Shown here: piece by piece, positions 1,596 through 3,398 of the stretch
How the letters are laid out: the number at the start of each line of letters is the position of its first letter
Position numbering within the stretch: position 1 is the first letter of the stretch
Virus record (IMG/VR): IMGVR_UViG_2529292735_000014
Strand: one strand, 5' to 3'
DNA length: 5,892 nt
From: a virus
Lineage: Duplodnaviria; Heunggongvirae; Uroviricota; Caudoviricetes
Notes under the pieces: model-generated
Told to the model about the DNA's origin: nothing
What the model saw: only the letters and a program-made list of their open reading frames with translations
The model's database searches: none
Made by a program: the position numbers and the translations under genes

Positions 1596-2060
1596 TCAAC
1601 ATCCCCGCTCGTATCGCAAGGGCTGAAATACGTCATTAATGAAATATTCGCTTATGTCCGGAAGCGATACTGCAAAATTATTTGTTTGTTGCGCCGTCCT
1701 GCTATGCAGCAAAGCGGCATGCTTTAATGCGTCCTGTGCTTTCTGGAATTTAAGTGCATAGTCAGTGGCGATTTTTTCCAGTTCAGTGATTCGGTTGTCT
1801 TTGGTTTCCAGCCAATCAAGTAGCGCCAATACTTCAGGATCCCCGACATCCAACACTGTTATGCGTGATTTTTCATAATGTTCGTCAGCAAGAGTTCGAC
1901 CAATTTTGAAATCTCCATCATCACCATAACCGGAGCAGGCATAAACAACCTGTGCTCCAGATATTCGCTGAATTGACATTTCCTCACCGCAAATAGGGCA
2001 TTTCGGTACTGGCACAGGTGAATAACGTTCACGTAATGCCTGATAGTTGATTTCGCTCAT
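1596..2060 (-). CDS. hypothetical protein, 154 aa, N-terminal zinc-ribbon-like motif (CPICG...YACSG) followed by a predicted helical region; function unknown
   Basis: ATG at 2060 is preceded by AAGGAG with about 8-nt spacing. The ORF is intact to the stop at 1596-1598. It is noticeably AT-richer than the flanking parMR and A genes, suggesting separate acquisition. I do not recognise the family. Confidence 0.65.
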   Translation of the reverse strand: MSEINYQALRERYSPVPVPKCPICGEEMSIQRISGAQVVYACSGYGDDGDFKIGRTLADEHYEKSRITVLDVGDPEVLALLDWLETKDNRITELEKIATDYALKFQKAQDALKHAALLHSRTAQQTNNFAVSLPDISEYFINDVFQPLRYERGC

Positions 2061-2096
2061 TAAGTCGTTCTCCTTGTTTATGTACTGAGGTGAGAG

Positions 2097-2114
2097 CAGG
2101 GCGAACTCGCCCTG
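2097..2114. promoter_or_regulatory. 18-bp palindrome CAGGGCGA-AC-TCGCCCTG between the parR-like stop and the 154-aa gene; candidate operator or RNA stem-loop
   Basis: Perfect inverted repeat (7-8 bp GC-rich arms) 9 bp after the parR-like stop and 37 bp before the ATG at 2060. No U-tract follows it on the - strand transcript, so it is not a canonical intrinsic terminator. It shares the CAGGGCGA arm with the palindrome at 1430..1455. Confidence 0.45.
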
Positions 2115-2122
2115 ATGTTGTG

Positions 2123-2434
2123 TTATTCAGGAAATAACGCCCGGATATTTCCGGCCATCTGACTGGTTATCTGTGCGGTTGATACTGGCTGTGATGCGGG
2201 GCGTTCTGTCCTGGTTTGTGTCACTGATAACGCTTCATCACCAGCCCATGCAGCCAGTCGATAAGCCTCTGCCGGATTCATTTTCAGAAGTGCCAGCCCG
2301 GCCAGAAAAGCCACGCGTTGGCCGCTTTTGCGGGCTTCTGGTGTAAGGCTGTCCAGCCAGGCGCATGCTTCTCCTTCGTTCTTGACGGCGGTGGGCTTCA
2401 GATAGAAACTTATCCGTCTGGTTGGAGTCGTCAT
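2123..2434 (-). CDS. parR: ParR/StbB-like partition adaptor / DNA-binding protein (ribbon-helix-helix type), 103 aa
   Basis: The translation MTTPTRRISFYLKPTAVKNEGEACAWLDSLTPEARKSGQRVAFLAGLALL...IRALFPE resembles plasmid R1 ParR as I recall it (RRTIAFKLNP...LDSIP..ER...AALTAGLAL...LRSLFPKE). The ATG at 2434 lies 4 nt after the parM-like stop, with GGAG inside the last parM codons (AAGGAGTAA) acting as a ribosome-binding site, which indicates translational coupling. The longer 148-aa ORF in the track (to 2569) overlaps parM out of frame and is not supported. Confidence 0.7.
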   Translation of the reverse strand: MTTPTRRISFYLKPTAVKNEGEACAWLDSLTPEARKSGQRVAFLAGLALLKMNPAEAYRLAAWAGDEALSVTQTRTERPASQPVSTAQITSQMAGNIRALFPE

Positions 2435-2438
2435 TGGT

Positions 2439-3398
2439 TTACTCCTTGTCCATTGCGTACAGCCCATTAACCAGAGCAAACTGTGGCACCCCGTCCGCGA
2501 TGAAAGTCGCATTAACTCCGCAGGCTTCGCGGATAGCGGGTGCCACAATCTCCGCCCCTCCACCGACAACCATCACCCGCCCGTAACCCGAAAAACCCGC
2601 CAGCGCGCGGATCACGCGTTGTTTCAGTGTTTCTTCCTTTTCACGAATAACCGCCATCAGGCTGTCGTAATGCGCGTCATTGTGGATGTGCTGGCGCAGC
2701 CAGGCTTCATCATGGCGATGTTCGATAATGGTATTGGCGATGTGGTGACTGGTACGCATACCGTTAGTGGCCATCACCGACAGTACGGCATCGGCCATCA
2801 GGGAAACGCCTACGTGTGGATCGCAAAACACCTGGCTGATACCTGCCAGTTGTCCCTGGACCTTTGCCACATCCAGCGTGGTTCCGCCCAAATCCACAAT
2901 CAGCAGGGATTCAAACGGACTCATGTCAGCCAGTGCTTTAAAGCCAGCCGGAATGGATTCAGGCATAACCCGTACGTTACGGATAGTGAATGCTTCGCCG
3001 TTCTGGTACTCCACCGGGCGCATAACGTTCGCTTTTTTGCGGCTGATGTTGGTCATGTCCGGCTGTGCGTTTGTGTCGAAATACTCGCTCAGTGGCAGGG
3101 TGACAACCACATCCACCTCCTGTGGCGTGATGCCTGATTTGACCAGCGCGTGATGAATGGCAATGACATTCACATCGCTGTACTGGTATTGCGTGTCGGT
3201 CGTCTGGACAAAGCGATCGCTGACCGGATCAAAACCATAGCGCACGCCATCAAGCATGTAGTTCGCGGGCTGCGTACCACCGAACGGCGCAGACCATTCC
3301 GACTTGAAGCTGTTCGGGCTGATGGCGTTGCGGCGTTCGCCGTTCTCAGTCCATGCCAGCTTGATGTTGGTGGAGCCGTCGTCGATACAAATTTTCAT
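2439..3398 (-). CDS. parM: ParM/StbA-like actin-fold ATPase (type II partition NTPase family), 319 aa
   Basis: N-terminus MKICIDDGSTNIKLAW closely parallels R1 ParM (MLVFIDDGSTNIKLQW, from memory). Further actin-like ATPase motifs are present: ISPNSFK, YSDVNVIAIHHAL, IVDLGGTTLDV (phosphate-2 DxGGxT), VMVVGGGAE (adenosine motif) and the C-terminal LVNGLY. The ATG at 3398 has AAGGGAAAG upstream. The gene starts 32 bp after the A stop. Confidence 0.9.
   Translation of the reverse strand: MKICIDDGSTNIKLAWTENGERRNAISPNSFKSEWSAPFGGTQPANYMLDGVRYGFDPVSDRFVQTTDTQYQYSDVNVIAIHHALVKSGITPQEVDVVVTLPLSEYFDTNAQPDMTNISRKKANVMRPVEYQNGEAFTIRNVRVMPESIPAGFKALADMSPFESLLIVDLGGTTLDVAKVQGQLAGISQVFCDPHVGVSLMADAVLSVMATNGMRTSHHIANTIIEHRHDEAWLRQHIHNDAHYDSLMAVIREKEETLKQRVIRALAGFSGYGRVMVVGGGAEIVAPAIREACGVNATFIADGVPQFALVNGLYAMDKE

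Follow-up and report, generated by a model that had tools for sequence, protein, structure and literature searches.

A ParM-ParR gene pair retained by P88-like P2-family prophages: a probable type II segregation cassette with a candidate centromere

The window analysed here is a whole stretch of 5,892 nucleotides (nt) from the IMG/VR virus record IMGVR_UViG_2529292735_000014. By comparison with known phages it is a P88-like prophage of the P2 family (Peduoviridae, genus Xuanwuvirus), being 97% identical to Escherichia phage P88 everywhere outside the cargo segment. On its minus strand the replication gene A is followed by parM, parR and a gene for a protein of 154 amino acids (aa), after which come the cos region and the portal gene. 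Judged from the genomes compared, the parMR pair is fixed in the P88-like lineage and under strong constraint, with a constant place directly after A. We consider it probable, with room for doubt, that the pair and two 42-nt repeats upstream of parM make up a complete type II (ParMRC-type) DNA segregation cassette, which would move circular phage DNA by the general mechanism of such systems.

The parMR pair is of a known kind, already noted in the literature and in databases. RefSeq labels the products ParM and plasmid partitioning/stability protein, the paper on phage phiSM lists the gene as a partitioning protein (PMC6456863), and Rousset et al. (2022), who surveyed the gpA-gpQ interval in all E. 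coli genomes, listed about a quarter of the P2-like loci as having a 'putative plasmid partitioning system' (PMC9122126). An earlier note on this DNA, made from the letters of the sequence, had placed a par module in the P2 A-to-cos hotspot and called it unexpected there. The interval was right, and the three-gene arrangement, its coordinates and the ParR end IRALFPE all check out on the minus strand; the presence of a partition system in P2-like phages had already been reported (PMC9122126). A 2026 preprint on the hotspot does not mention par genes, and a literature search for Xuanwuvirus or P88 together with ParM found no functional study. What remains of interest is the candidate centromere, which is compact and has one of its repeats overlapping the end of gene A, and the possible role of the cassette in an integrating phage of about a quarter of E. 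coli genomes. The features that carry the argument, with their positions in the window, are as follows.

2439..3398, minus strand: parM, actin-fold segregation ATPase, 319 aa (Pfam StbA_N, 6.9e-82; ParM C-terminal domain, 1e-68)
2123..2434, minus strand: parR, adaptor and DNA-binding protein, 103 aa (PF10784 Plasmid_stab_B, 3.1e-23; PHROG 2515)
3427..3468, no strand assigned: proximal 42-nt repeat, palindrome GGGATTCTGAAATCCC at 3435-3450; candidate half-site of the centromere parC, alternatively a plus-strand terminator
3501..3542, no strand assigned: distal 42-nt repeat, palindrome GGGATTCGTGAGTCCC at 3509-3524, lying within the 3' end of gene A; the other candidate half-site of parC

ParM and ParR

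Profile searches agreed with the earlier assignment of the 319-aa protein to the ParM/StbA actin-fold ATPases. Both domains of a ParM ATPase were found, and the protein aligned with the crystallised ParM of plasmid R1 (PDB 1mwk) over residues 2-316 with an E value of 1.3e-92. In the HMMER alignment the motifs of nucleotide binding and hydrolysis (DDGSTNIKL, MPESIPAG, DLGGTTLD and GGGAE) were identical or near-identical to those of R1 ParM. The protein belongs to PHROG 691 ('partition protein'), and no NCBIfam model scored above its cut-off for either ParM or ParR. Identity to plasmid ParMs was about 46-52%, the closest being that of an IncI-gamma/K1 plasmid (52%). Against the lineage of Hafnia-annotated relatives, the ratio of nonsynonymous to synonymous substitution rates (dN/dS) of parM was 0.04 at a synonymous divergence (dS) of 0.64. 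These comparisons show an R1-type ParM with intact nucleotide-binding motifs that has evolved under very strong purifying selection.

The gene directly downstream of parM matched PF10784, and calling its product ParR-like was correct. Its ATG lies 4 nt past the TAA of parM, and the last part of parM contains a Shine-Dalgarno sequence, AAGGAG; the spacing given earlier for the two genes was confirmed, but translational coupling, which had been read from it, is not demonstrated by close spacing. We aligned 17 phage alleles of ParR with two plasmid ParRs. The N-terminal strand RRISFYLKP was invariant in all 17 phage alleles, conserved residues followed just after it (residues 27-61), a linker of about 30 residues was hypervariable, and the C-terminal motif NI[RQN]x[LF]FP[EDK] was conserved across the phage alleles, reading NIRALFPE in the window. 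The two ends were thus kept in alleles that were otherwise only 52-57% identical, and the ParR of the closest plasmid (IncI-gamma/K1) ends in the same tail motif (NIKNLFPDDE). In R1, the C-terminal peptide of ParR is the part that binds ParM (PDB 4a62). A conserved DNA-reading strand and a conserved tail joined by a free linker form the pattern that a working adaptor would show. Among solved structures, ParR had no match by sequence.

For parR, the dN/dS was 0.25 (dS 0.83) against the Hafnia lineage and 0.30-0.35 against E. coli and Escherichia sp. alleles (L004 and L014). It occurs as several alleles of 52-97% amino acid identity beside a nearly invariant parM. About half of the E. coli copies carry an alternative allele of 52% identity (at 4465-4779 in L004), which diverges from about codon 19, that is, over 2123-2380 in the window, while their parM is still 98% identical. 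This pattern suggests recombination breakpoints inside parR.

Conservation of parMR in the lineage

The earlier note had taken parMR for cargo of the A-to-cos interval. We counted the parts of the arrangement in 5426 complete E. coli genomes. The A type of the window was present at a coverage of at least 80% in 1320 of them and parM in about 1307, and a 601-nt probe over the A-parM junction was intact in 1287 genomes, compared with the 1320 that have this A type. More distant relatives were gathered through ParR homologues and the contigs encoding them; a contig scan with ParM gave only three near-identical loci. All diverged relatives in which both flanks were available (the Hafnia-annotated L010-L012 and the Escherichia sp. 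loci L014-L015) had the order A-parM-parR, then zero to two variable genes, then the portal gene, without exception.

Because the junction is intact in 1287 of 1320 genomes, the order is constant in relatives and the dN/dS of parM is 0.04, parMR appears as a fixed component, and the cargo interpretation was overturned for the P88-like lineage, where the pair belongs to the conserved core. A rare exception was found in E. coli cS51a (L016, 4140-7300), which has a P88-type A without parMR. Its homology to the window stops at about 3592, and the C-terminal tail of A, both repeats and parMR are all replaced there, with three opposite-strand hypothetical genes instead.

One locus stood apart by its label. 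A parM locus of 98% identity lies in an assembly named Vagococcus sp., a Gram-positive genus (L009, NZ_JBQPOM010000071.1), and contamination or a mislabelled assembly is the likely reason.

Repeats upstream of parM

The hairpin repeats mentioned in the earlier note exist and are two 42-nt direct repeats of 81% identity, which straddle the end of gene A at 50-145 nt upstream of parM. Each holds the palindrome GGGATT-N4-AATCCC, with a spacing of 74 nt in the window and 73 nt in relatives. In the complete 34.4-kb genome of a relative, this palindrome had only two matches with up to two mismatches, and both were the repeats themselves. The proximal repeat was kept in every locus that has parM and upstream DNA, and both repeats were absent from the parMR-less L016. 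The 6+6 arms of the palindrome were essentially invariant in the loci from E. coli, Salmonella, E. albertii and the Hafnia lineage, with single-base mismatches in a few copies; what varied between loci were the loops, the outer pairs of the stem and the flank that codes for A. Nucleotide identity to the Hafnia lineage rose from about 55% in the 3' region of A to 70-82% from the distal repeat onwards and to 85-97% in parM.

The layout, two blocks around a spacer upstream of parM, resembles those of R1 parC and of the IncI-type plasmid. We regard the two GGGATT-N4-AATCCC repeats as the best parC candidate in this DNA, a reasonable though non-canonical one. The earlier statement that no canonical iteron centromere lies upstream of parM holds for an 11-bp array, but taken as the absence of any centromere it was too strong, given these repeats.

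As to expression, consensus scans found no sigma-70-like promoter anywhere in 950-3700 (at the threshold of the tool) and, between A and parM, no terminator on the minus strand. Since neither a promoter nor a same-strand terminator separates the two genes, parM is probably co-transcribed with A, and parMR would then be expressed with the early replication operon. The autoregulated promoter that type II systems have inside parC was not recognised; by eye, only a weak ATGAGC-N17-TATATG could be seen between the repeats.

Exchangeable segment and neighbouring genes

The variable part of the interval begins after parR, and its limits were set by three features.

2097..2114, no strand assigned: GC-rich hairpin just 3' of parR (-13 kcal/mol, z -3.8)
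1596..2060, minus strand: Ead/Ea22-like gene, 154 aa (PF13935, 2.8e-31, residues 2-140)
~1178..1455, no strand assigned: conserved cos-proximal block, bounding the cargo region on the right (identity to locus L011 of the Hafnia lineage, 86.7%)

The hairpin lies within the 62-nt spacer between parR and the 154-aa gene and has no T-run on the coding strand. It was kept beside different cargos and in the Hafnia variant with only a 63-aa open reading frame (ORF) before the portal gene; the conserved module ends there, and the hairpin forms the left edge of the variable cargo. Behind it, P88 has a carboxylate-amine ligase-like gene and small ORFs, strain TUM2802 two opposite-strand genes and L014 an Ogr-like gene. 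In L013, where the contig begins within parM, five called genes separate parR from the portal gene, a helix-turn-helix/M78 peptidase pair and a methyltransferase among them. Nothing more than the 63-aa ORF, which has no family match and is not called in L010, is present in the Hafnia-annotated loci, and the hairpin runs nearly into the cos block; in L011 this block comes almost directly after the parR hairpin. From these comparisons, the exchangeable hotspot comprises only the segment from the parR hairpin (2097-2114) to about 1455. The cos-proximal block also contains, at 1398-1423, a tandem AAAATTGTGC/AAATTTGTGC repeat with an overlapping palindrome, which is kept after the parR hairpin in Hafnia-lineage loci.

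The only gene in the variable region of the window is the one for the 154-aa protein, which the earlier note had described as an orphan zinc-ribbon gene. Neither description held: the protein scored 109.4 bits against PF13935 (cut-off 27) and belongs to the widespread phage family Ead/Ea22, and it has only three cysteines in the proposed ribbon (C21, C24 and C42, a CxxC plus one), with all zinc-ribbon Pfam models scoring below their cut-offs (E values of 0.01-0.19). Homologues occur in ES18 and ST64B (about 50% identical) and in D6 (71% over the first 82 residues). The full arrangement with this gene was present in 226 genomes, as against about 1300 with parM; presence and absence among close relatives thus vary for the Ead/Ea22-like gene and not for parMR, and by this distribution the gene is a separate, exchangeable piece of cargo. 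Another member of the family is gp10 of P88 (919-1233 in L001), in the early operon, and the family has two places in this phage lineage. Two Rfam candidates were set aside as chance: a sub-threshold nadA riboswitch at 1592-1630 on the plus strand, opposite the 3' end of the Ead/Ea22-like gene (26.3 bits where the gathering score is 37.5, E = 0.009), and a sub-threshold group II intron fragment (E = 0.88).

The genes on both sides of the interval are interrupted in the window.

3431..5791, minus strand: replication gene A (Phage_GPA, PF05840, 5.3e-131), window ORF, compared with the 941-aa A of P88
3..976, plus strand: portal gene Q, C-terminal 325 codons, frameshifted at 686-689
5818-5821: homopolymer difference in gene A, G4 in the window against G3 in relatives
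3492-3498: homopolymer difference in the 3' end of gene A, T7 in the window against T6 in relatives
686-689: homopolymer difference in the portal gene, G4 in the window against G5 in relatives

These three differences in homopolymer length set the window apart from P88 and every other relative fetched, and they break essential genes: A is frameshifted at 5818-5821 and 3492-3498, and the Phage_portal matches to Q are divided over two frames (with P88 Q in tblastn, frame 3 and then frame 2). They are either sequencing errors or prophage decay. Owing to the one-base insertion at 3492-3498, the A stop appears at 3431-3433 in the window, 32 nt before parM; in P88 and all fetched relatives that keep parMR and the upstream DNA, the canonical stop is at the equivalent of 3475-3477, 76 nt before parM. 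The order and co-orientation of A and parM given in the earlier note stand, and the 32-nt gap reflects the insertion. Gene A had a dN/dS of 0.21 and a dS of 1.31 against the Hafnia lineage. Directly after the portal stop lies a perfect 11-nt inverted repeat with a 3-nt loop (1003-1027), which is probably the end of the late P-Q transcript.

Proposed mechanism and alternative explanations

In P2-type phages, rolling-circle replication initiated by A yields monomeric circles, which are the packaging substrate. Because replication of the P2 type yields such circles, a segregation system would have something to act on. We propose that ParR dimers bind the two 42-nt repeats and thereby mark circular phage DNA, that the C-terminal NIRALFPE tail of ParR captures the ends of ParM-ATP filaments, and that these filaments would push, position or space the copies of the circular genome. 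The cassette would act on extrachromosomal circles after infection or induction, and not for keeping a plasmid prophage. More tentatively, a plasmid-type ParMRC may have been domesticated by an integrative P2-family lineage present in about a quarter of E. coli genomes for the benefit of its own monomeric circles, either for positioning them in replication or packaging or for carrying unintegrated genomes through cell divisions, with a centromere reduced to two palindromic repeats. It would be the first such case described in a Gram-negative tailed phage that is not a phage-plasmid; we hold this wider proposal to be possible and short of probable.

Several observations weigh against a complete segregation cassette. 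About three quarters of P2-like phages have no parMR (PMC9122126), and because they lack it, its benefit cannot be essential to the P2 lifestyle. The candidate parC lacks the canonical form, in which ten 11-bp iterons make up an array: nothing convincing was seen of a sub-periodicity of 10-11 bp, and an iteron-array interpretation was dropped since AAAC, sought over the 170 nt upstream of parM, showed no consistent phasing at 10-12 nt. On the plus strand, the hairpins with their T-rich tails resemble intrinsic terminators, and across loci the hairpins showed no compensatory changes, only conserved arms and a few single mismatches. Co-transcription with A was deduced from consensus scans, and a weak ParR-regulated promoter between the repeats is possible. 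Finally, the dS of parM against the Hafnia lineage is lower than that of A, which hints that the module moved between lineages at deeper timescales.

The resemblance to terminators leads to a different explanation of the repeats, namely that they are tandem plus-strand intrinsic terminators and no centromere, the ParR site being elsewhere or absent. They would then stop late transcription from the P-Q operon, or antisense transcription derived from the cargo, before it reaches gene A, and the cargo genes of some variants are indeed oriented towards parR. Both copies look like terminators on the plus strand (an 8-bp stem plus a T-rich tail, with hairpin energies of -10.2 and -12.7 kcal/mol), and the T-rich tail makes up much of the 42-nt unit. 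However, the stems are weak (z about -1.8 to -1.9), and a stronger hairpin is already present after the portal gene at 1003-1027. The arms stay essentially unchanged across lineages while outer stem pairs break in the Hafnia copies, a better fit to sequence-specific recognition than to hairpin stability. The repeats were also lost along with parMR in L016, and they lie upstream of parM in two blocks, as known parC sites do. We consider terminators unlikely, if conceivable, and parC the better reading, as an unproven candidate.

The cassette might also serve another purpose. Persistence of the prophage as a low-copy plasmid, that is, as a phage-plasmid, was suggested by Rousset et al. (PMC9122126) and also raised in the earlier note, and ParMRC systems classically stabilise low-copy plasmids. 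In favour, there is one complete P88-like genome with int, C, cox, A, parMR and structural genes that was deposited as a 34,461-bp circular non-mobilizable plasmid (L002, NZ_CP148288.1, from E. coli Z1323PEC0009). However, of the 1455 parMR places in E. coli genomes, 1453 are chromosomal and two are on plasmid records, and the start of the circular record coincides with the att junction, which fits an excised form resolved by the assembler. P88-like phages encode integrase, C and Cox, and A-driven rolling-circle replication is, as established for P2, not a copy-controlled plasmid replicon. Phage phiSM, whose ParM is 99.4% identical, integrates at attB and forms ordinary lysogens in K-12 (PMC6456863). 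An attP-spanning probe found no intact attP inside any record among the 434 genomes with that integrase type, a probe that cannot score circular NZ_CP148288.1, where the match crosses the record start. Since nearly all places are chromosomal, integrase, C and Cox are carried, phiSM integrates and no intact attP was found, stable plasmid prophages are at best rare. The low-copy extrachromosomal replicon in need of segregation, a usual feature of type II partition, was thus not found, and plasmid maintenance as the role of parMR is quite improbable.

A role in exclusion or defence, also put forward in the earlier note, appears very improbable. Here ParMR, or ParR alone, would disturb the partition of incoming plasmids or phage-plasmids, or ParM would be an anti-phage effector. 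The cassette does adjoin the A-to-Q defence hotspot (PMC9122126), and the several divergent parR alleles could reflect an arms race, but nothing that we found supports such a role: a PADLOC-DB search gave no match for any of the three proteins (E <= 0.01), and the cassette is fixed in the lineage and not patchy as defence cargo is. ParM is extremely conserved, and the variation of ParR falls in the linker, not in the putative DNA-reading strand or the putative ParM-binding tail. In tblastn, the phage ParR found only 7 plasmid records, most of them prophage-like; at such a distance from the ParRs of plasmids, it is unlikely to cross-bind their centromeres.

Comparison with known systems

The best-studied relative is the ParMRC system of plasmids R1/NR1 (the parA locus, stbAB). 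The phage cassette shares its parM-parR order, its ParM aligns end to end, its ParR is of the same family (PF10784), and repeats lie upstream of parM in two blocks. In contrast to R1/NR1, the host element is an integrative P2-family phage and not a low-copy plasmid. The phage ParR has 103 aa against 116 aa in R1 and is not linked to R1 ParR by tblastn, the candidate centromere has two 42-nt palindromic units against the ten 11-bp iterons of R1, and no recognisable promoter lies between the phage repeat blocks. The parMR of the IncI-gamma/K1 plasmid pB20127_2 (NZ_CP142941.1) encodes the closest plasmid ParM (52%), and the ParR tail motif is common to both. However, the plasmid ParR has a long linker within its 140 aa and an overall identity of 24% to the phage ParR, and the upstream repeats of the plasmid are T-rich iterons with a 10-nt period that lack the GGGATT palindrome.

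With respect to the neighbouring cargo, the 154-aa protein has the N-terminal segment and coiled-coil signature of the family of lambda Ea22 and P22 Ead, and the variability of its C-terminal part agrees with the mosaicism that has been described for Ea22 (PMC10834534). A pro-lysogenic effect has been reported for lambda Ea22 (PMC7093339). The 154-aa gene, however, is located in a P2-type hotspot instead of a lambdoid exo-xis region. In P2-like phages, the A-to-Q (TO, tin/old) hotspot is the same gpA-gpQ interval next to cos, but in P88-like phages parMR is constant and abuts A, and only the segment from the parR hairpin to about 1455 is exchanged. Surveys of the P2 defence hotspot should delimit it from parR and not from gpA in this lineage; otherwise parMR would be counted as a 'system' everywhere.

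The closest functional precedent, and the model for our proposal on P88-like phages, is AlpAC/alpS of prophage CGP3 in Corynebacterium glutamicum. There, an actin-like protein is paired with a co-transcribed adaptor that has its binding sites upstream of the operon; the genes are induced early, and without them the excised circular phage DNA is not replicated efficiently (PMC4446434). About a quarter of complete E. coli genomes carry a P88-like prophage, those of O157:H7 and ST131 strains among them, which would make the parMR cassette one of the commonest actin-like segregation systems in E. coli. If parMR does organise replicating phage circles, the idea drawn from CGP3 would extend to enterobacterial myoviruses, and the model would be a tractable one, as P88 and phiSM can both be plated on E. 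coli K-12. Both systems are prophage-encoded and pair an actin-like protein with an adaptor, but they come from unrelated sequence lineages: AlpAC differs from the cassette described here, which has an R1-type ParM and belongs to a P2-type myovirus of a Gram-negative host.

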